Part shown: piece after piece, positions 20,198 to 37,122 of the stretch
Position numbering within the stretch: the stretch's first letter is position 1
How the letters are laid out: every line of letters begins with the position of its first letter
Program-made: the position numbers and the translations under genes
Assembly: GCA_963693115.1 (NCBI GenBank)
Contig: OY843750.1
Location: forward strand, 1,295,556-1,359,555
Reading direction: 5' to 3'
From: Spirochaetia bacterium
Lineage (GTDB): Bacteria; Spirochaetota; Spirochaetia; WTKD01; G963693115
DNA length: 64,000 bases
Notes under the pieces: generated by a model
What the model saw: only the letters and a program-made list of their open reading frames with translations
Told to the model about the DNA's origin: nothing
Database searches by the model: none

Positions 20198-23100
20198 AAA
20201 AAATGATGTCAGGCATCACACAACAACAACACCAAATATCCCACACATGTATCATCGCCACCATATCTCACAGAATATCGTGATATATGCAACAAAGCCT
20301 TCTTTCTAGATAGATACATACTGTATCTCTACATAGTAAAAATATAATAATATACTATATTATTATAGTATTGCTCTCCGCTCGCATGTCTCGTAGATCG
20401 TAGACAGGGTATACGCCAAGGAACAATAAGCAACAAACCTTGCAAAAAACCAGAGCTACAAGGAAGCAGTAATAACCCCGATATAGGTCAAAAAAGACCA
20501 AACACTAAGGCCAAAAACAAAAAAAATAGTGACCAAACAAAGGAGAATGCCATGCATCACCACATATATCAACCCCAAGAACAAGACCTCATACAAAGTC
20601 ATAGTAGCAAAGCTACCACCAAAGCAAGTACCAAAGCAAGTATCAGAGCCACCAGAAGATCCAGTAACCAAGCAAGGAGTTGCCGAGCAAACAATCGGAC
20701 ACGAGGACTCGTCCTCATCTCCCTAGCCCTTACATGCATACTAGGACTCCTCCTCCTCACCTGTAGTAGCGACCCAGAAGAAACAAGTCCCGTAATAAGC
20801 ACATTGAGTGGAGAACTAAGTTATAGCCTAGAGAACCAAGCCAGTCAGGCAGAGGGTATCATACTATCACCCTTACAAGAAGTAGAGGGAATAGCCTCAA
20901 TGATCATAGGAATGGCAGAAGGAACAAGCATAACACTCTACCCCCAATGGAGCAAAGCAGGACAAAGCGTGAATTATAGCCTAGAAGGAGCTGAAGGAGG
21001 ATCCGAAGAAAAAATAAGCATAGACAAAGAAAAAGGCATACTCACGATAGCAACAGTAACAGCAGAACAAGATAATAAAGAATACACCATAAAAGCAACA
21101 GGAACAGGAAACTACAAAGGAACCTACACCCTGAATATCAAACTAGAAGTAGGAACCTTGATAGGGAGTTTTGAGTATAAAACAACAGGAACAGAACTGA
21201 GTATAGTAGAACAAACAAAGCACACAACAGAAGCACCCGAGTGGGAAGGGGGGAGTGCCCCCAGTGGAGTAGCATACACATTGAGCAAACCCAATGAGCA
21301 TGTACGAGTAGATGAGAGTAGTGGAGCAATCAGCATAGGGAGAGGACTCCATAAAGAATACACCGAAGGCTATACAATAGCAGTACAAGCGAGTGGAACA
21401 ACCGTAAAAGGAGTAGCGAGTGTAAGCATAGCTATAGAGATAGAGAGTTGGTGTGGCGTAGTAGGCAAGGATAGAGGGACCATAGTACCAAGGGCAGAAG
21501 GAACAGGGTATACGATAGAAGGATGGCGAGAGTTAGAGTGGTTAGCGAGGAAAGCAGGAACAGCAGCAACAGGAGCAAGTTTAGCGAGTAGTTATACGAT
21601 GACAGAAGACACAGAACTACCCTATCAGTCCTGTAATGAGCGAGGAGAAACAGTAGCAGGGTATGACCCTATAGGAGACAGTACCACAGGCTTTAGTGGG
21701 AGTTTTGATGGGGGAGACAAGACGATACGAGGCTTGAGGATAGAGAGTAGTGGAGATGAAATAGGATTATTTGGAGTAGCGAGTGGTAATATCAATGATG
21801 TAAGGATAGAGGGAGCAGAGATAATAGGAGGAAAGAACGTAGGAACACTAGCAGGCAAGTATACTGGAGGGGCAATAAGCAATGTCCATATTACAGAAGA
21901 TGAGGAAGGCAAGGGATCGGTGAAGAGCACAGCAGCTGACAGTGATGTTTATGTAGGAGGGCTTGTGGGGTATATGAATAGCGATGTAGACCCAGCAGTG
22001 ACAGAGAGTTCATCAGCGGTAGCAGTGGAGGCCTTAGGGAACAATGTAGGAGGCTTGGTAGGGAGACAAGCGGGAAAGGGTCAAATAACAAAGAGCTATA
22101 CTACCGGCGATGTTACAGGAAAGAACAAAGTAGGGGGTATTATAGGGAACATGGGGTTTTCTAGCAAGGTATATGGCTATACGAGTGGAGATATAAGCGG
22201 TGAGGAGTATGTAGGAGGGCTAGTAGGATACACTGAGAAAGATGTTTACGGTTATGCGACTGGTACCATACGGGGTACAGTGCGTGTAGGTGGATTAGTA
22301 GGAAATTCTGGCTTTAGTCCTGGCAATGTGTTTGGCTATACCACAGGAGATATTAGTGCGAAGGGAGACTACGCGGGGGGCTTGGCTGGAGATTCTGCTG
22401 GTGGAAAAATTTATGGACTTTCTACCGGCACTATACGAGGTAATGAAAGCGTAGGAGGTCTTGTGGGTAGACAGTTTGGGAACATTAATGGATATGCCAC
22501 AGGGGATGTGATAGGAGCCGACAAGGTGGGAGGACTAGCGGGACATGTTTCCGATGGCTTTACAACAGGGCAAGAAGGATATTTTAGAGGCAATGTTATC
22601 AGTACGGCGAGTGACCCTAGTAATGCTATCGACTTTGGTCTCACAATAGGAAAAAATGAGAGTAGCAGTACAAGTATTAACTATTATTATTCGACCAAGA
22701 GTGGCGAAGGAGGACTGTACCAGTTGAAAGACGACAAACGAACTGCCTATAGCCCTACTACTGACGAAACTGCAGCAGGCTACCGCGCCTCCACTCAGGT
22801 CGGGTCAGGAGTGAGCGTGGCGAGTAGCGATACCGAGGATGCAATAAAGGCAAAATTTACAGGATTTACAGCGACAGAAGGTTGGAGCTATGCTGCAGGG
22901 CAGTGGCCAGCATTTATAGTTATTGGCAATGATGATAATCAAAAACTCCCTGATTTTGGTGATATACCAAACAGCGCAGAAGCGCAGAAGCCTTATACCG
23001 CACCTTAGGATGCTACAGGAGTACAAAAAAGGCACCGCAAGGTGCTATAGGCCAGCAAGGCGATAGGTATAGCGCAGTTGGTAAGGTGGGCGTATAAGCC

Positions 23101-23200
23101 TACCTTACCAGTTTGCAGAGAAGTGGGTTTGCCAGTTTACAAGCATGTTTAGGGTGCCTTAGGTGGGATGAGTGTATCTTGTTTGCAGTGCATGAATCTT
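20198..23200 (+). repeat. Cassette copy A of a ~3-kb triplicated unit (upstream region + lipoprotein gene + trailer)
   Basis: High identity by eye to 31258..34238 and 34254..37122, including non-coding flanks; boundaries approximate. Confidence 0.92.
20552..23008 (+). CDS. GLUG-repeat surface lipoprotein, paralog A
   Basis: AGGAG SD; hydrophobic stretch ending LLLT-C (spirochete-type lipobox); Ig-like beta region; PIG...FSGSFDG, GLFG and ~10 VGGLVG repeats. Confidence 0.85.
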   Translation: MHHHIYQPQEQDLIQSHSSKATTKASTKASIRATRRSSNQARSCRANNRTRGLVLISLALTCILGLLLLTCSSDPEETSPVISTLSGELSYSLENQASQAEGIILSPLQEVEGIASMIIGMAEGTSITLYPQWSKAGQSVNYSLEGAEGGSEEKISIDKEKGILTIATVTAEQDNKEYTIKATGTGNYKGTYTLNIKLEVGTLIGSFEYKTTGTELSIVEQTKHTTEAPEWEGGSAPSGVAYTLSKPNEHVRVDESSGAISIGRGLHKEYTEGYTIAVQASGTTVKGVASVSIAIEIESWCGVVGKDRGTIVPRAEGTGYTIEGWRELEWLARKAGTAATGASLASSYTMTEDTELPYQSCNERGETVAGYDPIGDSTTGFSGSFDGGDKTIRGLRIESSGDEIGLFGVASGNINDVRIEGAEIIGGKNVGTLAGKYTGGAISNVHITEDEEGKGSVKSTAADSDVYVGGLVGYMNSDVDPAVTESSSAVAVEALGNNVGGLVGRQAGKGQITKSYTTGDVTGKNKVGGIIGNMGFSSKVYGYTSGDISGEEYVGGLVGYTEKDVYGYATGTIRGTVRVGGLVGNSGFSPGNVFGYTTGDISAKGDYAGGLAGDSAGGKIYGLSTGTIRGNESVGGLVGRQFGNINGYATGDVIGADKVGGLAGHVSDGFTTGQEGYFRGNVISTASDPSNAIDFGLTIGKNESSSTSINYYYSTKSGEGGLYQLKDDKRTAYSPTTDETAAGYRASTQVGSGVSVASSDTEDAIKAKFTGFTATEGWSYAAGQWPAFIVIGNDDNQKLPDFGDIPNSAEAQKPYTAP

Positions 23201-23352
23201 CTAGTAAGCTAGCAAAGATAGATAAAGTAAACAGACTGGAAAAATTCGTAGCCTCTGTAAGTTAGGTAAAAGACCTATATACGTTAGGAAAAAGAATAGT
23301 ACAGGCAAAAAAAGTAATGCGGCTATGAGCGTATGTAATTAGCTTGTGGGTG

Positions 23353-24441
23353 CTATGTTGTCGCGTAGTTGGCTTCTAGCTTTGCATATGAGCTAGGGCT
23401 TAGCCGTTTAATTTTTTGTAGAATGATTGTAGAAGATTTTTTTGAGAGCGTGCTATCTTGGTTTTGGTAAACGTCTAGCATCCAAAGGTACTTGTTGAGT
23501 AGTAAGGGGAGGATTCGCACTGGATCGTCAAGACCGAGCGCCTTTGTATCTTCGAGTTTTGCCTCAAATTCGGTAATGCTTTGTACTATATCATTTTTTT
23601 CTACTGGGCGAAGCATCCTACTTTTGTTAAATACTTTGTCAAGATATCCAAATATTGGAATCCAAGCAAGGGCTTCATCTTTGCTCGCCTCTATATGCTC
23701 GATTATTTTTGCGTAAAGGACATGTATAAAGGGTGCCTCAAGTTCTGTAAGTCTAACTGCGAAGGGGTCTATAAAAAATGCTTCTTTAAACAGGAGTTTA
23801 GAAAAATCAATGAGATTACATAAATAATAGCTGTCTGCAAGTTCGCTAAGGTATCTACTATTTTTAGAGTCTTTTGCAACAAGGATTTTGATAATTTGCA
23901 GGGCCTTATAATGTTCTTCTTGTAGCTTAAGGGCTTTGTACATGAGAAACCTAAATTCAACTTCTTTTTTTTGGTCGGGTCTCATGCTTGAATTATACAA
24001 GAGGGTTGCGTAAAGAGTTTTAGAAATAAATTTTTGTACGAAGTTGAGGAGTTCCTTTGTAAGTCGGTATTCAAATTCATAATCTAAGTAAAACTCGGAT
24101 TTAAACTCGTACCATTTGTTGATGAGGAGGTGTGCTTTTTGTAATATGTCCTGTTCTTTTGCTATATCTTTAAAGTACTGATCCCATGTGTCTATCGCAA
24201 GAATTAAAGCCCTGAGGGTGTGGTTTGTGGTGTCTTGTGCTAGTCCGCGACGAATGATATAACTGGCCCTATCAATATTTCCCTCTAGCAAGGACTGAAA
24301 ACTGAGTGCAATAACATTTTTCTCATCAAAATCAGTTTCGTATTCTGTTGTATTTGCATTTGGTGTATTTGCATTTGGTTCATACTTCTTTGAGACAAGG
24401 GTGTCAGATAAAACAAGGTGTAACAAGGGGTAATGAAGCAT
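23353..24441 (-). CDS. Hypothetical TPR-like helical protein
   Basis: ELADSYYL, SKLLFKEAFFIDP helical repeats; start uncertain. Confidence 0.7.
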   Translation of the reverse strand: MLHYPLLHLVLSDTLVSKKYEPNANTPNANTTEYETDFDEKNVIALSFQSLLEGNIDRASYIIRRGLAQDTTNHTLRALILAIDTWDQYFKDIAKEQDILQKAHLLINKWYEFKSEFYLDYEFEYRLTKELLNFVQKFISKTLYATLLYNSSMRPDQKKEVEFRFLMYKALKLQEEHYKALQIIKILVAKDSKNSRYLSELADSYYLCNLIDFSKLLFKEAFFIDPFAVRLTELEAPFIHVLYAKIIEHIEASKDEALAWIPIFGYLDKVFNKSRMLRPVEKNDIVQSITEFEAKLEDTKALGLDDPVRILPLLLNKYLWMLDVYQNQDSTLSKKSSTIILQKIKRLSPSSYAKLEANYATT

Positions 24442-24483
24442 AACATACGTACCACTTAAAGAAAATTTATCGAAGAATAAGCC

Positions 24484-24512
24484 TTGAGATATCTATAAAA
24501 TAGTGGTATACT
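24484..24512 (+). promoter_or_regulatory. Sigma70-type promoter of sod
   Basis: TTGAGA-17-TATACT with TG extension; AAGGAGG SD downstream. Confidence 0.75.
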
Positions 24513-24542
24513 GATATCATAATATCATATAAGGAGGACATA

Positions 24543-25145
24543 TTGTCTTTTACATTACCATCACTTTCATTTAACACAAATGCTCTTGAACCATACATTG
24601 ATGCAAAAACAATGGAAATACACCATGGCAAGCATCATGCGGGATATGTTACCAAGCTCAACGCAGCTTTAGAAGGAACTACGCTCTCTCAAACACCGAT
24701 TACTGATATTCTTTCGGATATTGAGCAGGTTCCGGAAGACAAGCGACAGGCCGTTATAAATAACGGGGGAGGACATGCAAATCATAGTCTATTCTGGCAG
24801 ATACTGAGCCCTCAAACAACAAACCCAAGTCAATCTCTGAGTGCTGCAATACAAGAAGCGTTTGGTTCGTTTGACAAATTTAAAGAAGTATTTTCCGCTG
24901 CCGCTTTAACACGCTTTGGGAGTGGCTGGGCATGGCTCGTAGTAAAAAACAAGGCCCTGCAAGTAATGAGTACTCCTAATCAGGACTCGCCACTCATGCA
25001 AGACGCTACGCCGATACTTGGTATTGATGTATGGGAACATGCCTACTATCTCAGCTATCAGAATCGTAGACCCGATTATATAGCAGCGTTCTTTTCTATT
25101 ATCCATTGGGAGCGTGTGTCTGAGTTTTTTGAGCAAGCCTTATGA
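24543..25145 (+). CDS. sodA: Superoxide dismutase, Mn/Fe family (Mn-like signature)
   Basis: HHGKHH, NNGGGHANHSLFW, FGSGWAW, DVWEHAYY. Confidence 0.95.
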   Translation: MSFTLPSLSFNTNALEPYIDAKTMEIHHGKHHAGYVTKLNAALEGTTLSQTPITDILSDIEQVPEDKRQAVINNGGGHANHSLFWQILSPQTTNPSQSLSAAIQEAFGSFDKFKEVFSAAALTRFGSGWAWLVVKNKALQVMSTPNQDSPLMQDATPILGIDVWEHAYYLSYQNRRPDYIAAFFSIIHWERVSEFFEQAL

Positions 25146-26343
25146 CACGGCTTCCAGAGTAAATACTATTCGATCTCATTTTCCATTTTTTTCTGATAGT
25201 GGTCACCCCGTATATTTTGATAGCGCTGCTACTTCACTCAAGCCTGCGGTTGTTATCGATAGAATTACACGGTATTATTCTACCCAATCGAGTAACGTAC
25301 ATCGTGCTGACTATGCACTAGGCTTAGAAATAAGCCAAGAGTACGAATCCTGTCGAGAGCTCGTGAGGCAGTTTCTTGACGCAGGTGATGAGTACGAGGT
25401 TATTTTTAACTCAGGAACAACGGATGGACTGAACACAGTAGCGCAGACGCTTCTGAAAGGTTTGTCCCATAAAGCCACCGTACACACTAGTATTATGGCT
25501 CATCACTCCCTGCTGTTACCACTACGCAGGTATAGCCAAGAATATGGCCTACAATGCCTTGTTCATTCCTGTGATCATTCGGGAGCGCTTGACATTGACG
25601 CCCTGTGCAATCAGCTTAAGGCAGGAGATGCACTGTTTTTATGTGGAATGTCAAATATTACTGGCTATACCCCGCCTCTTAAACGTATAGTGGAACATTG
25701 TCAAGAGATAAAAGTTCCGATAATCATTGATGGAGCTCAGTTGGTTTCTCATCGTGATGTTTCTTTGCGAGATACGCCGGTTGATGCAATAGTGTTTTCG
25801 CCACATAAATTATTTGGGCCTACGGGAGTGGGTGTCCTATGTATAAAGCGAAGGCTCATTGATACATTGCATCCGTTTAGAGTAGGGGGCGGAATAGTAT
25901 CAGAGGTTACACTATATGGGCAAGAATACCAAGAAGGTGCCCGTGCGTTTGAAGCGGGTACTCCAGCGATTGCGTCTGTATTGGGTATGGGAGCAGCGCT
26001 TACCTTTATAGATAGGTTTGGTGGTATGAAAGTAGTTACAGCACATGAAAAAACCCTTAGAAAACAACTTATAGATGGTCTACAGGCAATCCCTCATATT
26101 CACATACTGGGTGATCCAGATCTTTCAGATGTGGCAGTTGTGAGTATCGTTTCTAGTAAGTATCATGCTCAAGACATCTGTTTTCACCTTAATGCAAACA
26201 ATATTGCTACGAGGGGAGGATTTTTGTGTGCTCAGCCCTACGTGAATTGTTTTACAGAAAAACCAGCAGTACGGGTTTCGTGCCACGTTTACAATACGCC
26301 AGATGATATTTTATTATTACTTTCTGCACTAGAAGCGCTATGA
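25114..26343 (+). CDS. sufS: SufS/CsdA-type cysteine desulfurase
   Basis: YFDSAATSLKP, DGAQ, SPHKLFGPTGVG, EAGTP, RGGFLCAQP; GTG start overlaps sodA. Confidence 0.85.
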   Translation: MCLSFLSKPYDTASRVNTIRSHFPFFSDSGHPVYFDSAATSLKPAVVIDRITRYYSTQSSNVHRADYALGLEISQEYESCRELVRQFLDAGDEYEVIFNSGTTDGLNTVAQTLLKGLSHKATVHTSIMAHHSLLLPLRRYSQEYGLQCLVHSCDHSGALDIDALCNQLKAGDALFLCGMSNITGYTPPLKRIVEHCQEIKVPIIIDGAQLVSHRDVSLRDTPVDAIVFSPHKLFGPTGVGVLCIKRRLIDTLHPFRVGGGIVSEVTLYGQEYQEGARAFEAGTPAIASVLGMGAALTFIDRFGGMKVVTAHEKTLRKQLIDGLQAIPHIHILGDPDLSDVAVVSIVSSKYHAQDICFHLNANNIATRGGFLCAQPYVNCFTEKPAVRVSCHVYNTPDDILLLLSALEAL

Positions 26344-26364
26344 ATTATAAAGGTACTGGGTGTA

Positions 26365-26874
26365 ATGGATAAGATTCCTATGCAGGAGCAGCTTCTCATT
26401 TTTGCAAGACACCCACAGTTTCAATATTATTCATCGGGAATATATGGGCATGCGATAAATTCGCTATGTAACGACTCTATGATTATTAGCATTTATCAAG
26501 ATAATGGGCGATACAAGATATTTTATACAGGGCATCTATGTAATTTATCGAGGGCATCGGCAGAAATCATGTGTGGTTATTTTTGGAATACAAAGCAAGA
26601 ACATGTATTTGGTATCATGAATCGCCTTGCTGAGGAATTTAATAAATTTTTTCACTTTGCAATACGGCGTGATACGACTATCCTTCAGAAGGAATTAAAA
26701 AAAATAAAGAATAGTGTTGGAGTATTTCCATTTCCAAAGCTATTAGAAAAGTCTGATGCTTACTTAAAACTTGCAACGAGTTTGCTGATGCTTTCTACTT
26801 CGCCACAAAGGACAGCGTGTATTTTGCTACCGTGGAATATTCTCTATACAATTATTCAAGGAGTTGTTAAATGA
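26365..26874 (+). CDS. Divergent SufU/IscU-like protein
   Basis: [24 protein letters not shown]: three Cys plus Asp; follows sufS. Confidence 0.7.
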
Positions 26875-27626
26875 TTAAACTGGTATTTATTCGACATGGA
26901 GAGAGTACATGGAATAAAGAAAATAGGTTTACTGGATGGACTGATGTTCCGCTCAGCGATAAAGGGGTGGTCGAAGCAAGAAAAGCTGGCTGTGTTCTTA
27001 AAGAGTCTGGGTATACCTTTGACCTCGCGTACACATCTTTGCTCACTCGTGCAATTCTTACTCTTCACTACGTATTGACTGAACTAGATCTGTTGTGGAT
27101 CCCTGTCCAAAAAACATGGCGTTTGAATGAACGTCATTATGGTGCATTACAGGGACTCAACAAAAGTGAGACGGCAGAAAAACATGGAAAAAAACAGGTA
27201 AGTATATGGAGACGTAGCTATGCTGTTCCTCCGCCACAACTTGCGCATGACGATTCGCGTAACCCCGTCCACGATCCTCGTTACAAAGATGTAGAGCCAG
27301 GCTTTCTTCCCCTCACCGAATGCCTAAAGGATACGGTACAACGTTTTTTGCCTTACTGGTCTAAGGTGCTTGCGCCACAACTCTTAGAGAAAAAAAAGTT
27401 GCTTATTGTGGCACACGGTAATAGTATACGCGCTGCTGTAAAGTACTTGGATAAAATCCATGACGAAGATATCGTTTCACTCAATATTCCCACCGGTGTC
27501 CCACTGGTATACGAATTAGATGACGCCCTTGTTCCACTGACACATTACTATTTAGGAGATCAAGACGAAATCGCACAGGCTACAGAACAGGTTGCACAAC
27601 AGGCTACGCATGCTTCGCCTAAGTAA
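26871..27626 (+). CDS. gpmA: 2,3-bisphosphoglycerate-dependent phosphoglycerate mutase
   Basis: [24 protein letters not shown]. Confidence 0.97.
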
Positions 27627-27691
27627 TGTATGCTTTTGCTTTGTAGCGATCTACGCACCATTAGGTGATATGAGAAAAAAACAGCCATTAG

Positions 27692-28531
27692 ATGTTTAGC
27701 AAACAATCGCAAGACATATCACATACCCAAGGTTTAGAGATAGAAAAAAAGTATCAAATTAGTCCTTCTTCGCTAGACGAGGTTGAGGTAGCAGTAAGGC
27801 AGAAATCCACATCATGGCATGTTCATGCAAAATACGATGAATACTACTTACTAGAAAAACAGTGGTTCAGAATCCGAACAGTACGCAAAGGAAACAATGC
27901 TAAGGAGAGCATGCATGTTTTTTCTTTTAAGCAAGAGCGAAGAAAGAATGGGCTGGAATATAATACCGAGTATGAAACACAGGTGTCATCTCCCAGCGTT
28001 ATGCGCTACCATCTTTTTGACTTGGGGGCTCGCCTCGATGCGGTTAAGTATAAACGCGGTACAACGTACCACCTTAGATCGTGGTTAAAAGATTGTAACT
28101 CTTCGCTTAGTGTTGAGTGTTCGAAGGTGTACTATAAATATGATCTAGCCTGTGACAGTTTACTGGAGGATAATTTATCGAAGGGCAATTTAGTGTATGA
28201 CAATTTAGAAAATGACAGTATAGAAAATGACAGTATATTGGATTATAAATCATTGGATGGCAAGCTAGCTGATAGCTATACAGGTAATGGCAATACAACT
28301 GGTGATAGCGATGGCATTAATAGTGGCGTGAGCGGATTTGTCTTGCTAGGTACATTTGTAGAAATTGAACTGCTTGGCACACCTACTGCAGAAGAAAAGG
28401 CAGATGATTTTTTGGTGGTAGATAGACGAATTGATGTCTTGGCACAAAAACTGCTTACGAGTGCCTATTCTAAGGCAGAACAACACTCATATCTGCACCT
28501 CATCAAACGCCACCAAGCCAAGCACGCTTAA
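27692..28531 (+). CDS. CYTH-domain (class IV adenylate cyclase-like) protein with an internal insertion
   Basis: EIEKK, D.YY, FRIR, EYET, K.K, LGTFVEIE, SYL. Confidence 0.75.
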   Translation: MFSKQSQDISHTQGLEIEKKYQISPSSLDEVEVAVRQKSTSWHVHAKYDEYYLLEKQWFRIRTVRKGNNAKESMHVFSFKQERRKNGLEYNTEYETQVSSPSVMRYHLFDLGARLDAVKYKRGTTYHLRSWLKDCNSSLSVECSKVYYKYDLACDSLLEDNLSKGNLVYDNLENDSIENDSILDYKSLDGKLADSYTGNGNTTGDSDGINSGVSGFVLLGTFVEIELLGTPTAEEKADDFLVVDRRIDVLAQKLLTSAYSKAEQHSYLHLIKRHQAKHA

Positions 28532-29771
28532 CGTTTCTAAATTCCGATTCTGGCATTGGGCTTGCCAGTGCATTTCTTATTTCGCTCATAAGGCGAATCA
28601 TGACGCCACAGTTGTGGGTTGTCAGTGCCATCATTCCGAGCATTTCACGTGATTTAAAGAGGTGGCGAAGGTATGCCCTGCTGAGCGTTTTGCAACACCA
28701 GTAAGGACACTGTGGTTCTAAGGGGCGTGAATCTTCTTTGTACTGGGTCTTGAATATATTGATTTTTCCTTCTGTCTTTGTGAGTGCTGTTCCATGGCGT
28801 GCTATTCTTGTTGGACTTACGCAGTCAAAGCAGTCTATGCCATATTCGACACCCCAAAATATGTCTTCTATTTCTCCTATACCTAGTAGATGGGTATAAG
28901 GATGGGAATGATTGTCGCTGTTTTTTGAGACTTCTATCGAATCAGTAGCTCCTGCATATAAGTCGGCATTGCGAGAGGCAGTAGGTAAATGAGTACAAGC
29001 ATGTAAGGTATCCATGCTATATGCAACGATATCGTGCATTTGTGAGCGTTCGCCTCCAAGGCTACCACCCACGCAAAGACCAAAAAATTGCTGATTGAGG
29101 ATGGTTTCTATGCTTTCTTTTCTGAGATCTTTATGGATTCCTCCTTGAATCACGCCAAGCATTGCAATGTCTTGATCGCCCACATGTCTTGTATAATAGT
29201 CGATGGATCGCTGCCCCCAACGAAGCGATCGTTTGAGTGCTTGGTGGGTATATGACTTATCGATGTGGTAAGGGGTACATTCGTCGAGTTGTACAATGAG
29301 ATCTGCTCCAAGATCAAGTTGGCATGCAACTGAAGCTTCTGGGCTAAGTAATATTTTTTTTCCATCGATATACGATTTAAACTGTGCTCCTTCTTCTTCA
29401 ATAGACAGCACGCTCTTTGTAGATCCGTGGGTATTACCCATGCGTTTAATCTCTTTTGAAACACTTCCGTGGCCCATGGCAAATATCTGATATCCCCCTG
29501 AGTCCGTCATCATTGGTTTGCTCCAGTTCATGAATGCAGGTATACCACCTTGTCTACGTATGAGGCTTGATCCCGGATTGAGCAGAAGATGGTACGTATT
29601 GGAGAGTATGATCTCTGCACCCATTGCCATGAGTTCATCGCTTCGGATGCATTTTACTGCTGCACGAGTTCCGCAGAAGACAAAATTTGGTGTTTGTACC
29701 GTGCCACGACTTGTCGTGAGGGTTCCGAGTCTTGCGAGTCTAGGTCCGCGTGTCTTGGTTTGGAATATCAT
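28503..29771 (-). CDS. tgt: tRNA-guanine(34) transglycosylase
   Basis: NTYHL, TDSGGYQ, LDECT, HLLGIG, DCFDCVSPTR. Confidence 0.95.
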   Translation of the reverse strand: MIFQTKTRGPRLARLGTLTTSRGTVQTPNFVFCGTRAAVKCIRSDELMAMGAEIILSNTYHLLLNPGSSLIRRQGGIPAFMNWSKPMMTDSGGYQIFAMGHGSVSKEIKRMGNTHGSTKSVLSIEEEGAQFKSYIDGKKILLSPEASVACQLDLGADLIVQLDECTPYHIDKSYTHQALKRSLRWGQRSIDYYTRHVGDQDIAMLGVIQGGIHKDLRKESIETILNQQFFGLCVGGSLGGERSQMHDIVAYSMDTLHACTHLPTASRNADLYAGATDSIEVSKNSDNHSHPYTHLLGIGEIEDIFWGVEYGIDCFDCVSPTRIARHGTALTKTEGKINIFKTQYKEDSRPLEPQCPYWCCKTLSRAYLRHLFKSREMLGMMALTTHNCGVMIRLMSEIRNALASPMPESEFRNVKRAWLGGV

Positions 29772-30564
29772 ATGGTCCAGGTGCGAATGTTTGTTCTGTA
29801 TTCTTTTTATTCAAAGGCCTCCGATGGAATGCTTTGGCAATATATATAAACGGGGTATCGAGTAGTGCAATAGCAACACGCACAATATACGTGCCAAACA
29901 CATAGCTCAATAAAACAGTGCGAAAAGGGAGGGGCTCTGATGCAAATACAATAAAGGCTAAGATACTAAAGACAGCACTATCAATGAGGGCGGATATTAG
30001 GGTAGAAACGTTGTTTCGAAGCCAGAGAAATCTGCCTGCGGTAAGTTTTTTTAGCATTAAGAAAAGCCCAATGTCACAACTCTGGCTTATAAGAAAGGCT
30101 ATAATACTTGATATAAAAAACAAGGGTATCACAGAAAAAATAGCCGTAATATGAATATGAGACTCCAGAAAAAACGGTGTGTTTACTGCCTGTTCCTGAG
30201 TAAGTGGAGCGTATCCTATCACAAAATAGGTAAAGACAAGCCAGATAAGGAGCGCACTAAAGCCAAGAAAGACTGCTTTTTGCGAGGACTTATAGCCGTA
30301 GAGTTCTGAGAGTATGTCTGTTGCAAGAAATATTGATGAAAAAAACACGGTACCAAGCGCAATGGGTTCTGGGAAAAAATCAAACTGAGTACCCTTTAGT
30401 ACTGCGATATTAGATGCTAGTATTGCCAATACTATATAACAGTAGAGACCAGCTTCGCCAAACACGAGGTTCATACATATTATAAATATAAAACAAGAAA
30501 TAAGTAAAAGTCCACTTACCCAAAGCGGATTTAATGACTGTAAAAATTCGATTATGACTTGCAT
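29740..30564 (-). CDS. Queuosine precursor transporter (YhhQ/VUT family)
   Basis: FLATDILSELYG, LWLRNNVST, DS..F, ALLDTPFIY; overlaps tgt; ATG 30564 preferred. Confidence 0.9.
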   Translation of the reverse strand: MQVIIEFLQSLNPLWVSGLLLISCFIFIICMNLVFGEAGLYCYIVLAILASNIAVLKGTQFDFFPEPIALGTVFFSSIFLATDILSELYGYKSSQKAVFLGFSALLIWLVFTYFVIGYAPLTQEQAVNTPFFLESHIHITAIFSVIPLFFISSIIAFLISQSCDIGLFLMLKKLTAGRFLWLRNNVSTLISALIDSAVFSILAFIVFASEPLPFRTVLLSYVFGTYIVRVAIALLDTPFIYIAKAFHRRPLNKKNTEQTFAPGPYDIPNQDTRT

Positions 30565-30921
30565 TGTGTTTACTAGGACTTCCACTATGTTTATTGTAGT
30601 AAAACGCAAAGTAATTTCAGAAGACTGTTCATTCCATCAAATAAAGATCTTGTGATGTTCTAATTAAGATTCAGCAAAAGCTACAAAATAATTCTCCCAA
30701 GAGAACTCAAAAAAGGAAAACTACAGAAAACTTACAGATACGATGTCAAGCAAAATATTTTAGATATTAGATAAAGGACTAGAACTAGAGGGCACAAAAT
30801 AGTAAGCAGAATAGTAAGCAGAACAGCACGCAAAACCCAAGAAACCAGAAAAAAAACTCAACAAGATTAAAAATTTGCTCCAAAAACTATATGAATAACA
30901 ATGGGCTTAAAGAAATTGCAT

Positions 30922-30990
30922 AAAAAAACGTTACTAGAGAAAAATAAAAAAACGTTACTAGAGAAAAATTGAAAACGCTAGAGCGAAATT
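30922..30990 (+). repeat. 24-bp direct repeat AAAAAAACGTTACTAGAGAAAAAT, two copies plus a degenerate third
   Basis: 30922-30945 and 30946-30969 are identical. Confidence 0.9.
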
Positions 30991-31000
30991 ATAACGAGAA

Positions 31001-31072
<72 letters not shown>

Positions 31073-31082
31073 ATGTGTTTTT

Positions 31083-31112
31083 AGTGTACCATAAAAAGCT
31101 AGACTTTGTCAA
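31083..31112 (-). promoter_or_regulatory. Promoter of tRNA-fMet
   Basis: Minus strand TTGACA-18-TACACT with TG extension. Confidence 0.75.
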
Positions 31113-31257
31113 GTGCCAGATCAGGCAATGAGTATATTACTACTTGGTTCAATGTTTTACATTTAGGACATTGCCTTTTTTCTAAGAGTATGAGATTGAA
31201 TAGCATTTGTATGTGTTTATAAACTACTGCTACTAGGTTCATGTCTGACACTTTACC

Positions 31258-34238
31258 TGTCACCACCATATCTCACAGGATATCGTGTATATGCAATAAA
31301 GCCCTCTTTCTATATAGACACATACCGTATTTCTACATAGTAAAAATATTATAATATACTATATTATTATAGTATTGCTCTCCGCTCGCATGTTTTGTAC
31401 ATAGTAGACAGGGTATAAGCCAAGGAACAATAAGCAACAAACCTTGCAAAAAAACAGAGCTACAAGGAAGCAGTAATAGCCCCGATTAGGTCAAAAAAGA
31501 CCAAACACTAAGGCCAAGTAAATAGTGGTCAAAGGAGAATGCCATGCATTACAACACAATATCACACCAAGAACAAGACCTCAAACAAGGTCATAAAAAC
31601 ACTAGCAACCAAGCAGGTAGTAGCCAAGCCACCACCCAAGCCACCACCAAAGCTACCACCAACCAAGCAAGGAGTTGCCAAGCAAGGAGTTGCCGAGCAA
31701 ACAATCGGACAGGGGGGCTCGTCCTCATCTCTCTAGCGCTTACATGCATACTAGGAGGACTCTTCCTCACCTGTAGCAGCGACCCAGAAGAAACAAGTCC
31801 CGTAATAAGCACATTGAGTGGAGAACTAAGCTATAGCCTAGAGAACCAAGCCAGCCAAGCAGAGGGTATCATACTATCACCCTTACAAGAAGTAGAGGGA
31901 ATAGCCTCAATGATCATAGGAATAGTAGAAGGAACAAGCATAACACTCTACCCCCAATGGAGCAAAGCAGGACAAAGCATAAGCTATAGCCTAGAACAAG
32001 AAGGAGAAGGTCTAAGCATAGACAAAGAAAAAGGCATACTCACGATAACCGAAGTAGACGCAGGGCAACACAACAAAGTATACACCATAAAAGCAACAGG
32101 AACAGGAAACTACAAAGGAACCTACACCCTAAACATCAAACTAGAAGTAGGAGCCGCCTTGATAGGGAGTTTTGAGTATAAAACAACAGGAACAGAGCTA
32201 AAGGTAATAGAACAAACAAAGCACACAACAGAAGCACCCGAGTGGGAAGGAGGAAGTGCCCCCAGTGGAGTAGCATACACATTGAGCAAACCCAATGAGC
32301 ATGTACAAGTAGATGAGAGTAGTGGCGTAATCAGCATAGGGAGAGGACTCCATAAAGAATACACCGAAGGCTATACAATAGCAGTACAAGCGAGAGCAAC
32401 AGACGTAGTAGGAGTAGCGAGTGTAAGCATAGTAATAGATATAGAGAGTTGGTGTGGCGTAGTAGGCAAAGATAGCGGGACCGTAGTACCAACGAAGAAG
32501 ACAGGAGAAACATGGTATACGATAGAAGGATGGCGAGAGTTAGAGTGGTTAGCGAGGAAAGCAGGAACAGCAGCAACAGGAGCAAGCTTAGCGAGTAGCT
32601 ATACGATGACAGAAGACATAGAACTACCCTATCAGTCCTGTAATGAGCGAGGAGAAACAGTAGCAGGGTATGACCCTATAGGAGACAGTACCACAGGTTT
32701 TAGTGGGAGTTTTGATGGCAAGAACAATACGATACGAGGCTTAAGGATAGAGAGTAGTGGAGATGACATAGGATTATTTGGAGTAGCGAGTGGTAATATC
32801 AATGATGTAAGGATAGAGGGAGCAGAGATAATAGGAGGAAAGAACGTAGGAACACTAGCAGGCAAGTATACTGGAGGGACAATAAGCAATGTCCATATTA
32901 CAGAAGATGAGGAAGGCAAGGGATCGGTGAAGAGCACCGCAGCAGCAGACAGTAATGTTTATGTAGGAGGGCTTGTGGGGTATATGATTAGCGCTACAGA
33001 CCCAGCAGTGACAGAGAGCTCATCAGCAGTAGCAGTGGGGGCCTCAGGGAGCCATGTAGGAGGCTTGATAGGGGGGGGATCCGCAGTTGGTCAAATAACA
33101 AAGAGCTATACCACTGGCAATGTAACAGGAAAGAACTATGTGGGGGGTATCGTGGGACGAAATAGAGGCTACGTATATGGCTATACGAGTGGGGATATAA
33201 CTGGTGAGGAGTATGTAGGAGGCATATCGGGATATGCGTACGGTGGGTATGGTTATACAACAGGTACCATACGGGGCACAAAGCATGTAGGCGGGCTGGC
33301 AGGTTATAGCACTGAATATAATTCGAAGGGTTATAGCACTGGAGATGTTAGTGCAAGCGGGGACAACGTGGGGGGATTGGTAGGATATATAATTAGTGGC
33401 AGTTTGAGTGGCTTTTCTACTGGTACTATACGGGGTAATAAAAACGTAGGTGGGCTTGCAGGTTTTAATACTTCTACGTCATATGGTTATGCCACAGGAG
33501 ATGTGATAGGAGCAGATAGCGTGGGAGGATTAGTAGGGAAACATAACTCTGCTTTTAGCAACTCAGGATATTTTAGGGGCAATGTTATCAGTACGGCGAG
33601 TGATCCTAGTAGTGCTAAATTCTTTGGTCTCACGATAGGAGAAAATACTAGCAGTGAAAACACTAGTTTTTATTATTCGACCAAGAGTGGCGAAGGGGGA
33701 TTGTACCAGTTGAGTAATGGCAAACGAACTGCCTATAGCCCTACTACTGACGAAACTGCAGAAGGCTACCGCGCCTCCACTGAGCCTGGGAAAGAAGTGA
33801 GCGTAACGAGCAGTGATACCGAGGAAGAGATAAAGGCAAAATTTACAGGGCTTACTGAAATCGAATGGAGTTTTACCGCAGGGCAATGGCCAGCGTTTAT
33901 AGCTGTTGCTAGCAGTTCTAGTGATAGTCAAAAATTCCCTGATTTTGGTGATATACCAAACAGCGCAGAAGCACAGAAGCCTTATACCGCACCTTAGGAT
34001 GCTACAGGAGTACAAAAGGCACCGCAAGGCGCTATAGTGCGTTTGAGAAACACATAGGGGTACTTGAGAGCACATAGGGCATAGATAGGTTTGGTCAGTG
34101 GGCTTGAAATGAAAGCCCACTGAAGATTTTGGGGCGAGTTTAGTCTAGCTCGCAGAGACCCCTCAATTTGCCAATTTGCAAGCATGTGTAACGCACCTAG
34201 GTGGGGTGGGTGTACTCTATTTGTAGTGAGTGAATCTT
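31258..34238 (+). repeat. Cassette copy B
   Basis: Homologous to copies A and C, flanks included; boundaries approximate. Confidence 0.92.
31544..33997 (+). CDS. GLUG-repeat surface lipoprotein, paralog B
   Basis: Lipobox LFLT-C; same architecture as paralog A. Confidence 0.85.
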   Translation: MHYNTISHQEQDLKQGHKNTSNQAGSSQATTQATTKATTNQARSCQARSCRANNRTGGLVLISLALTCILGGLFLTCSSDPEETSPVISTLSGELSYSLENQASQAEGIILSPLQEVEGIASMIIGIVEGTSITLYPQWSKAGQSISYSLEQEGEGLSIDKEKGILTITEVDAGQHNKVYTIKATGTGNYKGTYTLNIKLEVGAALIGSFEYKTTGTELKVIEQTKHTTEAPEWEGGSAPSGVAYTLSKPNEHVQVDESSGVISIGRGLHKEYTEGYTIAVQARATDVVGVASVSIVIDIESWCGVVGKDSGTVVPTKKTGETWYTIEGWRELEWLARKAGTAATGASLASSYTMTEDIELPYQSCNERGETVAGYDPIGDSTTGFSGSFDGKNNTIRGLRIESSGDDIGLFGVASGNINDVRIEGAEIIGGKNVGTLAGKYTGGTISNVHITEDEEGKGSVKSTAAADSNVYVGGLVGYMISATDPAVTESSSAVAVGASGSHVGGLIGGGSAVGQITKSYTTGNVTGKNYVGGIVGRNRGYVYGYTSGDITGEEYVGGISGYAYGGYGYTTGTIRGTKHVGGLAGYSTEYNSKGYSTGDVSASGDNVGGLVGYIISGSLSGFSTGTIRGNKNVGGLAGFNTSTSYGYATGDVIGADSVGGLVGKHNSAFSNSGYFRGNVISTASDPSSAKFFGLTIGENTSSENTSFYYSTKSGEGGLYQLSNGKRTAYSPTTDETAEGYRASTEPGKEVSVTSSDTEEEIKAKFTGLTEIEWSFTAGQWPAFIAVASSSSDSQKFPDFGDIPNSAEAQKPYTAP

Positions 34239-34253
34239 TAAGACATAGTGCAC

Positions 34254-37122
34254 GTAAAAAATGATGTCAAGCATTACATAACAATACAGTAAACAACAAG
34301 CCCAAGTATCCCGTACATAATCATCACCAATATATCTCGCAGGATATCGTGTATATGCAATAAAGCCCTCTTTCTATATAGATACATACCGTATTTCTAC
34401 ATAGTAAAAATATTATAATATACTATATTAATATAGTACTGTTTCCTACCCTTATGTCTCGTACATCGTAGACAGGGTATACGCCAAGGAACAATAAGCA
34501 ACAAACCTTGCAAAAAAACAGAACTACAAGGAAGCAGTAATAGCCCCGATTAGGTCAAAAAAGACCAAACACTAAGGCCAAGTAAATAGTGGCCAAAGGA
34601 GAATGCCATGCATTACAACACAATATCACACCAAGAACAAGACCTCATACAAGGTCATAGTAGCAAGGCAAGCACCAAAGCCACCAAAAAAGCCAGTAGC
34701 CAAGCAAGTAGTAGCCGAGCAAACAATCGGACATGGGGATTCGTCCTCATCTCCCTAGCCCTTACATGCATACTAGGAGGACTCCTCCTCACCTGTAGTA
34801 GCGACCCAGAACCAGGAGAAACAAGCCCAAGTAAAAGCACATTGAGTGGAGAACTAAGTTATAGCCTAGAGAACCAAGCCAGTCAGGCAGAGGGTATCGT
34901 AATATCACCCTTACAAGAAGTAGAGGGAATAGCCTCAATGATCATAGGAATAGTAGAAGGAACAAGCATAACACTGTACCCCCAATGGAGCAAAGCAGGG
35001 CAAAGCATAAGCTATAGCCTAGAACAAGAAGGAGAAGGTCTAAGCATAGACAAAGAAAAAGGCATACTCACGATAGCAACAGTAACAGCAGAACAAGATA
35101 ACAAAGTATACACCATAAAAGCAACAGGAACAGGAAACTACAAAGGAACCTACACCCTAAACATCAAACTAGAAGTAGGAGTCGCCTTGATAGGGAGTTT
35201 TGAGTATAAAACAACAGGAACAGAGCTAAAGGTAATAGAACAAACAAAGCACACAACAGAAGCACCCGAGTGGGAAGGGGGGAGTGCCCCCAGTGGAGTA
35301 GCATACACATTGAGCAAACCCAATGAGCATGTACGAGTAGATGAGAGTAGTGGAGCAATCAGCATAGGGAGAGGATTACATACAGTATATACAGAGGGCT
35401 ATACAATAGCAGTACAAGCGAGAGCAACAGACGTAAAAGGAGTAGCGAGTGTAAACATAGTAATAGATATAGAGAGTTGGTGTGGCGTAGTAGGCAAGGA
35501 TAGCGGGACCGTAGTACCAACGGCAGAAGGAACAGAGTATACGATAGAAGGATGGCGAGAGTTAGAGTGGTTAGCGAGGAAAGCAGGAACAGCAGCAACA
35601 GGAGCAAGTTTAGCGAGTAGCTATACGATGACAGAAGACATAGAACTACCCTATCAGTCCTGTAATGCGCGGGGAGAAACAGTAGCAGGGTATGACCCTA
35701 TAGGAGACAGTACCACAGGTTTTAGTGGGAGTTTTGATGGCAAAAACAATACGATACGAGGCTTGAGGATAGAGAGTAGTGGAGATGACATAGGATTATT
35801 TGGAGTAGCGAGTGGTAGTATCAAGGATATAAGGATAGAGGGAGCAGAAATAATAGGAGGAAAGAACGTAGGAACACTGGCAGGCAAGTATACTGGAGGG
35901 ACAATAAGCAATGTCCATATTACAGAAGATGAGGAAGGCAAGGGATCGGTGAAGAGCACCGCAGCAGCTGACAGTGATGTTTATGTAGGAGGGCTTGTGG
36001 GGTCTATGAGTAGTGATACAGACCCAGCAGTGACAGAGAGCTCATCAGCGGTAGCAGTGGAGGCCTTAGGGAGCTATGTAGGAGGCTTGATAGGGAGACA
36101 AGCGGGAGATGGTAAAATAACAAAGAGCTATACCACTGGCAATGTAACAGGAAAGAACTATGTGGGGGGTATCGCAGGTTTTAGTGGGGGTAATAGTATA
36201 GTATATGGCTATACGAGTGGGGATATAACTGGTGAGGAGTATGTAGGAGGGCTAATAGGATACACTAAGAAAGTTGTTCATGGTTATACAACTGGCGCTA
36301 TACGGGGTACAAAGCATGTAGGCGGGATCATAGGTTATATTGATGAAGGAGCAGGATATGGTTATAGCACTGGAGACGTTGGTGCGAGCGGAGACTACGT
36401 GGGGGGATTGTCTGGATATGGAAAGTATGGTGGTTCTCGTGGTTTTTCTACTGGCACTATACGGGGTAATGAATACGTAGGCGGGATCATGGGTTATATT
36501 GCAAGTAGCGCTGCGATTGGTTATGCCACAGGAGATGTGATAGGAGCAAATAGCGTGGGAGGATTAGTAGGGGAGCATAACTCTTTTGGCAACACAGGAT
36601 ATTTTAGGGGCAATGTGATCAGTACGGCGAGCGATCCTAGTAGTGCTACCGACTTTGGTCTCACAATAGGAAAAGATACTAACACTAGTACAACTAGTTA
36701 TTACTATTCGACTAAGGATGGTGAAGGAGGATTGTACCAGTTGAGTAATGGCAAACGAACTGCCTATAGCCCTACTACTGACACAGGTGCAACAAACTAC
36801 CGCGCATCCACTCAGGTTGGGTCAGAAGTGAGTGTAACGAGCAGTGATACCGAGGATGCGATTAAGGCAAAGTTTATAGGGTTTACTGTAAGCCAATGGA
36901 GTTTTACCGCAGGGCAATGGCCAGCGTACATAGCTATTTCTAGTAATGAGGCACTTCCTAATTTTGGTGATATACCAAACAGCGCAGAAGCACAGAAGTC
37001 TTATACCGCACCTTAGGATGCTACAGGAGTACAAAAGGCACCGCAAGGTGCTATAGGCCAGCAAGGCGCTATAGGTATAGCGCGACTGGTAAGGTGGGCG
37101 TGTAAGGTTCGCCTTACCAGTT
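34254..37122 (+). repeat. Cassette copy C, in direct tandem with B
   Basis: Begins ~15 bp after the end of the B trailer homology; boundaries approximate. Confidence 0.92.
34608..37016 (+). CDS. GLUG-repeat surface lipoprotein, paralog C
   Basis: Lipobox LLLT-C; same architecture as paralog A. Confidence 0.85.
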   Translation: MHYNTISHQEQDLIQGHSSKASTKATKKASSQASSSRANNRTWGFVLISLALTCILGGLLLTCSSDPEPGETSPSKSTLSGELSYSLENQASQAEGIVISPLQEVEGIASMIIGIVEGTSITLYPQWSKAGQSISYSLEQEGEGLSIDKEKGILTIATVTAEQDNKVYTIKATGTGNYKGTYTLNIKLEVGVALIGSFEYKTTGTELKVIEQTKHTTEAPEWEGGSAPSGVAYTLSKPNEHVRVDESSGAISIGRGLHTVYTEGYTIAVQARATDVKGVASVNIVIDIESWCGVVGKDSGTVVPTAEGTEYTIEGWRELEWLARKAGTAATGASLASSYTMTEDIELPYQSCNARGETVAGYDPIGDSTTGFSGSFDGKNNTIRGLRIESSGDDIGLFGVASGSIKDIRIEGAEIIGGKNVGTLAGKYTGGTISNVHITEDEEGKGSVKSTAAADSDVYVGGLVGSMSSDTDPAVTESSSAVAVEALGSYVGGLIGRQAGDGKITKSYTTGNVTGKNYVGGIAGFSGGNSIVYGYTSGDITGEEYVGGLIGYTKKVVHGYTTGAIRGTKHVGGIIGYIDEGAGYGYSTGDVGASGDYVGGLSGYGKYGGSRGFSTGTIRGNEYVGGIMGYIASSAAIGYATGDVIGANSVGGLVGEHNSFGNTGYFRGNVISTASDPSSATDFGLTIGKDTNTSTTSYYYSTKDGEGGLYQLSNGKRTAYSPTTDTGATNYRASTQVGSEVSVTSSDTEDAIKAKFIGFTVSQWSFTAGQWPAYIAISSNEALPNFGDIPNSAEAQKSYTAP

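Follow-up and report, generated by a model that had tools for sequence, protein, structure and literature searches.

The stretch analyzed here, referred to as the window, comprises 64,000 nucleotides (nt) of contig OY843750.1 (assembly GCA_963693115.1) from a Spirochaetia bacterium. It includes three complete copies, designated A, B, and C, of a gene for a putative lipoprotein built around GLUG repeats. A preliminary description of this DNA had presented the genes as triplicated cassettes that are mosaics of each other. The number was not borne out: a tblastn search of the whole genome (one contig of 1,800,686 bases, 86% complete by marker genes) identified eight full-length copies located at six places and sharing 76-100% identity, five of which lie outside the window. 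Pairwise identities among the eight proteins range from 78.8 to 92.4%. The mosaicism was confirmed by the pairwise homoplasy index (PHI), run tests, and segment trees, all of which indicated that the copies are mosaics of each other generated by recombination or gene conversion.

The open reading frame (ORF) list and the alignment place the three genes of the window on the + strand at 20552-23008 (copy A, 818 amino acids, aa), 31544-33997 (copy B, 817 aa), and 34608-37016 (copy C, 802 aa), in agreement with the three frames of about 810 aa described before, and their proteins share 79-84% identity. Copies B and C, although tandem neighbors (84% identical), are not each other's closest relatives. 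As had also been described, each gene was copied together with its upstream region (about 300 nt) and its trailer (40-105 nt), and the homology unit extends from approximately -330 to +40/+105 around each gene. The leader of copy A (20251-20551, + strand) is an upstream block that aligned across all eight copies. That of copy B (31256-31543, + strand) is 87.7% identical to the leader of copy A and 91.7% identical to that of copy C (34320-34607, + strand), and the identities among the three are 86-92%. A -10-like box and a Shine-Dalgarno sequence are common to the eight aligned leaders. In copy A they are represented by TATAAT near 20343-20350, which precedes a long 5′ leader, and AAAGGAG at 20539-20545 (both on the + strand). 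Since a promoter scan of the leader found 5 sites when 5.0 were expected from shuffled sequences, we only infer the promoter from the conserved leader. The sole match in an Rfam scan of the leader was a microRNA at chance level (20.4 bits, the gathering score being 68). The trailer of copy A (23009-23113, + strand) includes a G+C-rich hairpin (23031-23045) plus a second inverted repeat and is shared over its full length with the trailer of copy C (37017-37122, + strand; hairpin, 37037-37051). That of copy B is short (33998-34037, + strand; hairpin, 34018-34032).

Two small elements were found within the leaders. A 14-nt unit, AGCCAAGGAACAAT, is located between the promoter-like box and the Shine-Dalgarno sequence (window positions 20400-20440; also L001:2846-2881) and is present once in copies A, B, C, and H, twice in copies E, F, and G, and about three times in copy D; the number of units could change the length of the leader or expression. 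An inverted repeat of 8 nt with a 4-nt spacer (20353-20372; also starting at 31357 and 34421) lies directly 3′ of TATAAT and is kept in all eight leaders. It is a possible operator in this AT-rich DNA. In addition, a perfect 24-nt tandem repeat (2.1 copies) was observed in the intergenic region upstream of cassette B (window positions 30920-30969).

The copies outside the window are located at genome positions 762515 (copy D, + strand), 823136 (copy E, + strand), 193568 (copy F, - strand), 256797-259238 (copy G, - strand), and 584500 (copy H, + strand). The reading frame is open from the common ATG in seven of the eight copies. In the remaining one, copy G, the frame is lost over about 80 nt of a 12-nt repeat array (L004:5321-5442, - strand) through a +1 indel and a subsequent -1 indel, and the frameshifted stretch of the N-terminal repeat region includes two in-frame TAG codons; the public gene call is a 728-aa protein. 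Copy G is either a decaying or silent copy or the product of indel errors in the assembly. The repeats in the N-terminal coding region, which differ in number between copies, have periods of 12 nt and, in copy B, also of 15 nt. Therefore, the frame is maintained when a unit is gained or lost, and no on/off switch is evident. When the eight cassettes were compared with the genome by blastn, only 4 matches of 39-53 nt with 79-85% identity were detected outside the eight loci, which indicated that there are no partial or silent cassettes in this genome. Silent cassettes, which had been considered as a candidate component of the system, were rejected on this basis.

Mosaic structure of the eight copies

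The codon alignment of the eight copies has 2355 ungapped columns, of which 594 are polymorphic and 375 informative. The first comparison concerned copies A, B, and C, for which the preliminary description had listed short peptides shared by one pair or another along the gene. All 14 examples pair in the alignment as had been claimed (four A=B, five B=C, and five A=C). The sites at which two of these copies agree and the third differs amount to 413 (185 for BC, 131 for AC, and 97 for AB), and they are arranged in 170 runs compared with 267 expected (z = -10.3). None of 10,000 permutations gave a number of runs as low, and therefore the changes of the matching pair along the gene are genuine and cannot be attributed to chance.

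The same conclusion was reached with the complete family. The PHI value over the 375 informative sites was 0.352, compared with a permutation mean of 0.483 (z = -22.7), and none of 2000 permutations was as low. The signal was present in the 5′ part (z = -10.6), in the 3′ part (z = -11.1), in the 3′ part after removal of the eight hypervariable loops described below (z = -5.5), and when only third codon positions were considered (z = -12.1), in all four cases with 0 of 2000 permutations as low. A GENECONV-type run test was significant in 27 of the 28 pairs when these were evaluated pairwise, the exception being A-B (p = 0.09); global correction left 6 of 28 significant. Maximum likelihood trees calculated for six consecutive segments of the gene differed from each other. 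When the tree of one segment was confronted with the data of another, the approximately unbiased (AU) test rejected it in 28 of 30 cases at the 0.05 level, and the whole-gene tree was rejected by three of the six segments. Because the segment trees conflict and the PHI and run tests are significant, a single tree does not fit the whole alignment. The condition named in the preliminary description as one that would refute mosaicism, a common tree for the complete alignment, therefore does not hold.

Inspection of the alignment shows how the segments are distributed. Identical tracts of 150-344 nt change partners along the gene, the closest partner of copies A, B, or C shifts every few 60-nt windows, and blocks of several residues group the copies differently from one part of the gene to the next. 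Copies B and H, for example, have loops 3 and 4 in common and nearly identical loops 5 and 6, and they differ in loops 2, 7, and 8. A four-gamete analysis gave a minimum of 92 events, a number that multiple hits in the divergent 3′ half have inflated and that must not be taken literally. Taken together, these results strongly support gene conversion as the origin of the mosaic copies.

Predicted solenoid scaffold and variable loops

The proteins begin with a low-complexity region of 50-60 aa, encoded by the tandem repeats, that precedes a hydrophobic segment. In copy A the 12-nt repeat occurs in 3.3 copies at 20603-20642 (+ strand), the copy number varying among the paralogues, and in copy B the 12- and 15-nt repeats occupy 31624-31700 (+ strand). 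The signal region has the same composition in all eight copies: RANNRT, about 20 hydrophobic residues, the motif L(L/F)LTC, and then SSD. The Cys codon of the putative lipobox is found at 20762-20764 in copy A (LLLTC), 31772-31774 in copy B, and 34794-34796 in copy C (all on the + strand). This lipobox was read from the sequence and the alignments, and both the Thr at position -1 and the 50-60-aa extension ahead of the hydrophobic region are atypical. The relatives described below, whose N-termini also lead to a Cys, come closer to a standard lipobox. Two Ig/cadherin-like modules follow (approximately 20816-21502 in copy A, + strand). Their matches to Pfam Cadherin are all below threshold, an Atlas search with the N-terminal domains was uninformative (best score, 0.76), and AlphaFold modeled these domains with a predicted local distance difference test (pLDDT) score below 50.

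The central part of the protein is a beta-solenoid predicted with confidence, which in copy A corresponds approximately to 21617-22588 (+ strand) and is followed by a C-terminal domain with a fixed tail. An AlphaFold2 model built from a seven-row alignment had a mean pLDDT of 53, with values of 70-95 at residues ~380-670. These residues form, in the model, a solenoid with three strands per repeat of about 26 aa, which would amount to about ten coils. The best match of the model in the Protein Data Bank (PDB) was the GLUG protein 3n6z (Foldseek probability, 1.00; E-value, 6.6e-3; TM score on the target, 0.45), the pneumococcal IgA1 protease was the next, weaker structural match, and a sequence search of the PDB returned no match. 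Comparison with the GLUG family PF07581, for which the cut-off is 20.5 bits, gave 25.8 bits for copy A, 20.4 bits, just under the cut-off, for copy C, and no match at E ≤ 0.01 for copy B; a six-frame scan of the genome with the same family placed copies C, A, F, and H above the cut-off. The GLUG repeats of the family are degenerate. The Pfam match, the predicted fold, and the structural match to 3n6z agree with the proposal of the preliminary description that the scaffold is a GLUG-type beta-solenoid.

Two distant paralogues, P0017 and P0011, were found at genome positions 518987-521866 and 570957-573848. They are 975-990 aa long and share 29% identity with the family and 34% with each other. 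They follow the same overall plan but have four Ig-like repeats (Rib/cadherin-like matches); their signal segment leads to a Cys, and their C-terminal tail is related to that of the family.

The amino acid changes are concentrated in one loop per coil, located after the motif VGG(L/I)xG, as the preliminary description had noticed. The columns of the eight hypervariable loops were set on the eight-copy alignment. In copy A they fall within 21971-22576, at 21971-21988, 22064-22084, 22148-22171, and 22229-22249 (loops 1-4) and at 22304-22333, 22391-22414, 22469-22489, and 22544-22576 (loops 5-8), and the loop regions of copies B and C are within 32981-33565 and 36003-36596, respectively (all on the + strand). 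The pooled proportion of differing non-synonymous sites (pN) was 0.46 in the loops (68 codons) versus 0.074 in the scaffold of the loop region (146 codons). The ratio of non-synonymous to synonymous substitution rates (dN/dS) was 1.23 in the loops (95% bootstrap interval, 0.86-1.72) and 0.29 in the scaffold (0.19-0.42), where dS was 0.27. The N-terminal domains (384 codons) had a dN/dS of 0.45 with a dS of 0.086, and the C-terminal domain (144 codons) had a dN/dS of 0.44 with a dS of 0.29. In the 3′ half, dS reaches 0.27-0.59. Constraint is clearly weaker in the loops than in the scaffold, and positive selection was not demonstrated. The dS of the N-terminal domains, about three times lower than that of the solenoid scaffold, fits a stronger homogenization of the 5′ part by conversion.

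Exchange between copies and its alternatives

Each unit, composed of leader, gene, and terminator-like hairpin, is placed among housekeeping genes. The neighbors of the cassettes in the window include greA, sodA, sufS, gpmA, tgt, hisC, rnhB, and smc. Outside of it, copies E and G adjoin ATP-binding cassette (ABC)/FtsX-type transporters, and copy H is located between dnaA (- strand) and gyrB (+ strand) at genome positions 581500-589935 (L005), a usual origin region. If the origin is in the region of copy H, all eight copies are co-directional with replication. The GreA protein (17199-19919, - strand; 906 aa) has a long N-terminal extension, a form typical of spirochetes, and matched the model PRK14720 with 704 bits, just below the cut-off of 714 bits. 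Its relatives in species genomes all belong to Spirochaetota and the best of them is just 42% identical. Both the model match and the relatives support the assignment of the organism to the spirochetes.

The preliminary description had noted that no recombinase or reverse transcriptase (RT) is present in the window, and this proved correct. No RVT_1 match was found in the whole genome, while control genomes did match, and only two tyrosine recombinases were identified, at 1124-1127 kb, about 190 kb from copy A, the nearest copy. In a scan of 23 flanking ORFs, no match to a transposase or integrase reached E ≤ 1e-5. RecA, RuvB, and MutS are present and intact. Three mechanisms were considered and rejected. 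Mutagenesis by a diversity-generating retroelement (DGR) was ruled out for a genome without reverse transcriptase. Site-specific inversion or integration was discarded in view of the location of both tyrosine recombinases, far from all copies, and of flanks without transposase or integrase. Loss of mismatch repair as the driver of homeologous exchange was discarded after the mutS frame was found to be an intact ORF of 816 aa, the stops that had been flagged being located outside of it.

We consider it probable that the eight genes form a lineage-specific family of putative lipoproteins, organized as self-contained units, which became mosaic through exchange between copies and constitute a standing repertoire of variants. 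The exchange would occur between full-length paralogues at dispersed loci, by ordinary RecA-dependent homologous recombination in the form of non-reciprocal gene conversion. The conserved stretches coding for the scaffold between loops would act as homology anchors, such that single-coil loops may be swapped as modules. The exchanged tracts measure from tens to about 340 nt; each copy is consequently pieced together from the others, and the gene has no tree that fits it throughout. With one coil per repeat, the variable loops would be expected to align on a single side of the solenoid. The outcome would be a repertoire of surface-protein variants reshuffled over evolutionary time, possibly faster. 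By analogy, it is likely closer to that of families of complete genes, such as opa of Neisseria, than to a switch based on an expression site and silent cassettes. Immunity, phage, grazers, or host receptors could be the selective agent.

Several points weigh against this interpretation, and the first of them concern the protein. Lipidation and surface exposure are putative, and a Thr at position -1 of the lipobox is unusual outside spirochetes. A second group of points concerns the DNA sequence. The family sequences rest on a single assembly, and the locus was present in four public runs, from one study and two samples, as assembled contigs only. The public contigs over copy A stop at the edges of the repeat (20201/20340 and 23039/23219), and no contig crosses the whole gene. 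Therefore, the linkage of the mosaic segments was not independently confirmed. The polishing of a long-read assembly with short reads could also have created a false patchwork in the 5′ half, where the copies are 91-99% identical. Taken to the extreme, these observations lead to an explanation in which the whole patchwork stems from assembly or polishing errors among near-identical repeats of a metagenome-derived genome. The breaks of the public contigs at the repeat borders and a 5′ half similar enough for reads to be misplaced agree with it, as does the presence of at least two strains over the two samples. A second strain in the second sample is indicated by a 3915-nt contig from run X4 that covers the 3′ flank of copy A and differs at 26 letters over 717 bases (window positions 23184-23900). 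However, pieces of the divergent 3′ half that are specific to copy A were recovered in independent short-read contigs at about single-copy depth, with no differences over 168 nt and 381 nt and 4 differences over 457 nt. The recombination signal is equally strong in the divergent 3′ part, where mismapping is unlikely, and the regrouping of the copies along the gene involves blocks of several residues. The summed depth of the contigs, approximately 150-490 over conserved parts versus 5-24 over the flanks, does not represent a copy number.

Natural variants in other DNA bear on the same question. A search for shorter proteins identified three fragments, P0121, P0125, and P0122, on two short metagenome contigs. 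P0121 (428 aa), encoded by a separate metagenome contig, is 84.7% identical to copy C and 72-78% identical to the other seven copies. Thirty-two of 427 residues are absent from all eight copies, most of them located in loops, and many of the remaining differences from copy C agree with other paralogues. P0125 is 97% identical to copy F and P0122 is 96% identical to copy B, their respective best copies; both are listed with a 3181-nt contig, possibly one and the same. The fragments show that further natural variants exist and are silent on the tempo of change. With an independent contig that encodes a mosaic variant (P0121) added to the evidence from copy A, an origin of the patchwork in assembly errors seems very improbable.

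The remaining points against the proposed interpretation concern selection. The interval of the loop dN/dS includes 1, and therefore relaxed constraint accounts for the loops as well as diversifying selection does. In addition, the loop alignments are near saturation at a pN of 0.46. The family could then be a recently expanded one that undergoes neutral concerted evolution, with conversion as a by-product and loops that are merely unconstrained; dosage or different binding partners would be possible reasons for the multiple copies. A loop ratio not significantly above 1, a 5′ half that is being homogenized (dS, 0.086), and the location of the copies among housekeeping genes, without dedicated machinery, are compatible with this scenario. 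On the other side, seven of the eight copies are intact over about 2.4 kb in spite of the high dS of the 3′ half, purifying selection on the scaffold is clear and the loops in between differ at nearly half of the non-synonymous sites, and the novel residues of P0121 are mainly in the loops. For these reasons we regard neutral concerted evolution as unlikely and favor the standing repertoire maintained by exchange between copies.

Known systems, relatives, and significance

The preliminary description had proposed an antigenic-variation system analogous to vlsE and vlp/vsp of Borrelia and tprK of Treponema. In systems of this type, one expression site is fed by promoterless donor cassettes. The analogy did not hold: an archive of donor cassettes as found in vlsE, vlp/vsp, tprK, pilE/pilS, and msp2 was not detected in this genome, and there is no single expression site, the leader with its -10-like box and Shine-Dalgarno sequence being found in all eight copies and an open frame in seven. 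A DGR, defined by an RT and a template repeat, is absent as well, as no RVT_1 match occurs genome-wide. The arrangement observed, several complete copies among which hypervariable regions are exchanged and whose own promoters we infer from the conserved leader, resembles that of opa. It differs from opa in the coding repeats, which do not shift the frame (their periods are 12 and 15 nt, and copy G was shifted by two single-base indels).

These observations also bear on a more dynamic scenario, programmed antigenic variation at high frequency, in which segmental conversion would occur within one lineage during colonization of a host, with one or a few copies expressed and the repeats used as switches. 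The mosaic tracts are short and numerous, the loops vary on a fixed scaffold, and another assembly contains a further variant with novel loops (P0121), all of which would be expected in this case. The same holds for the varying number of repeats, both of the 14-nt unit in the 5′ leader (1-3 copies) and of the 12-nt unit in the N-terminal coding region, and for the fact that copy G is out of frame precisely in the N-terminal tandem-repeat region. However, the coding repeats preserve the frame, the state of copy G requires two separate single-base indels, as read from the alignment, blastn did not detect donor cassettes, and with one type of leader in the eight copies no distinct expression site can be recognized. 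A programmed system of this kind appears improbable, and we retain the view of a repertoire reshuffled by exchange between complete genes. A bolder version of the latter would be a third architecture of spirochete surface variation. In this architecture, which we put forward as a doubtful possibility, eight complete genes for GLUG-solenoid lipoproteins of a deep-branching, uncultured spirochete would actively shuffle single-coil loop modules by means of scaffold anchors, and leader and N-terminal repeats of varying number would tune the choice of copy. Neither silent cassettes nor a dedicated recombinase or RT would be needed for the resulting combinatorial diversity of the surface.

The proteins of the known systems differ in structure from those described here. 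Opa proteins are outer-membrane beta-barrels and not solenoid lipoproteins, the fold of VlsE is helical, unlike the GLUG solenoid, and the variable regions of tprK are fed from dedicated donor sites, which blastn did not find here. Tpr proteins are not known to be GLUG solenoids or lipoproteins. Neisseria opa genes are present in about 11 complete dispersed copies, each of them expressible and none silent or defective, and code for proteins with surface-exposed hypervariable regions that are subject to recombination between loci. They have repeats in the region coding for the signal peptide and switch by means of a 5-nt CTCTT repeat that shifts the frame (PMC4534519). In terms of that account, the two families are alike in their dispersed complete genes, recombined hypervariable regions, and repeats in the N-terminal coding region, and they differ in the repeat itself, a frame-shifting one of 5 nt in opa and frame-keeping ones of 12 and 15 nt here. 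VlsE of B. burgdorferi, likewise a surface lipoprotein of a spirochete, is described as being diversified through segmental gene conversion (PMC3585125, PMC11756760), and the vls locus as one expression site with 15 silent cassettes on a linear plasmid (PMC3585125). Compared with this outline, the family described here consists of eight full-length chromosomal genes with their own leaders and no silent cassettes. The likeness to the tpr genes of T. pallidum lies in a family of paralogous spirochete surface proteins that is modular or mosaic and undergoes gene conversion between members (PMC3656149, PMC6197692).

Relatives of the family were searched for in other collections. No full-length relative with more than 39% identity was found outside this genome among 5.8 billion clustered proteins, none of five genomes of the same family had a match, and neither a search of genome contigs with copy A nor the metagenome contigs of the Joint Genome Institute (JGI) yielded relatives. 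PF07581 was present in nearly all relatives found by sequence. Known GLUG solenoids (PF07581; BACOVA_03286/3n6z; and the IgA1 protease of Streptococcus pneumoniae, 7jgj, 6xjb, and 7uvl) have the repeat motif and the fold in common with the family. The differences are that the proteins described here are smaller putative lipoproteins with Ig-like N-terminal domains that form a multicopy mosaic family and, with respect to the IgA1 protease, that no match to the M26 domain (PF05342) was detected in copies A, B, or C. No link between GLUG proteins and spirochetes was found in the literature searched, in which the GLUG papers, by their titles and abstracts, do not deal with a spirochete family.

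GLUG proteins are present in three genomes of a sister family, with 26-50 matches each. One of these genomes (G007; L092, L093, and L094) has tandem arrays of three to seven GLUG paralogues each, 457-1043 aa long and 33-66% identical, in which the N- and C-termini are conserved and the number of repeats varies. Their N-termini have a hydrophobic stretch with Cys as its last residue, for example ...LILAC ahead of TNAG, and we read them as lipobox-like. The arrays thus resemble the eight-copy family in the signal peptide that leads to a Cys, the GLUG repeats, a conserved Trp-rich C-terminal tail, and the many paralogues; they differ in the tandem layout, and only the repeat region was matched to the eight-copy family. 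In a second sister-family genome (G008), four matches with equal scores (C1:934-1695, C1:8760-9521, C2:1166553-1167314, and C2:1174379-1175140) fall in ORFs of 693 aa, cut by the start of the contig, and about 2500 aa. They look like near-identical copies of a GLUG protein, three of them giant.

Bacteria classically vary their surface through multigene families of surface proteins that gene conversion reshapes, and the known examples from spirochetes come from a few pathogens, namely Borrelia and T. pallidum. The family described here belongs to this known class of paralogous surface-protein families shaped by gene conversion, with an unusual scaffold and in a poorly known spirochete lineage. 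The mosaicism of the paralogues is well supported, and a function in antigenic variation is unproven. What sets the eight-copy family apart is a lineage whose best GreA relative is 42% identical, a GLUG beta-solenoid in which each coil bears one variable loop, and the presence of complete genes only. Should the loops prove to be exposed on the surface and subject to diversifying selection, the family would represent a compact case, found in nature, of a repeat protein on which loop modules are shuffled. With the paralogue arrays of the sister-family genome added, it would then suggest that GLUG lipoproteins form the variable coat of this spirochete order.

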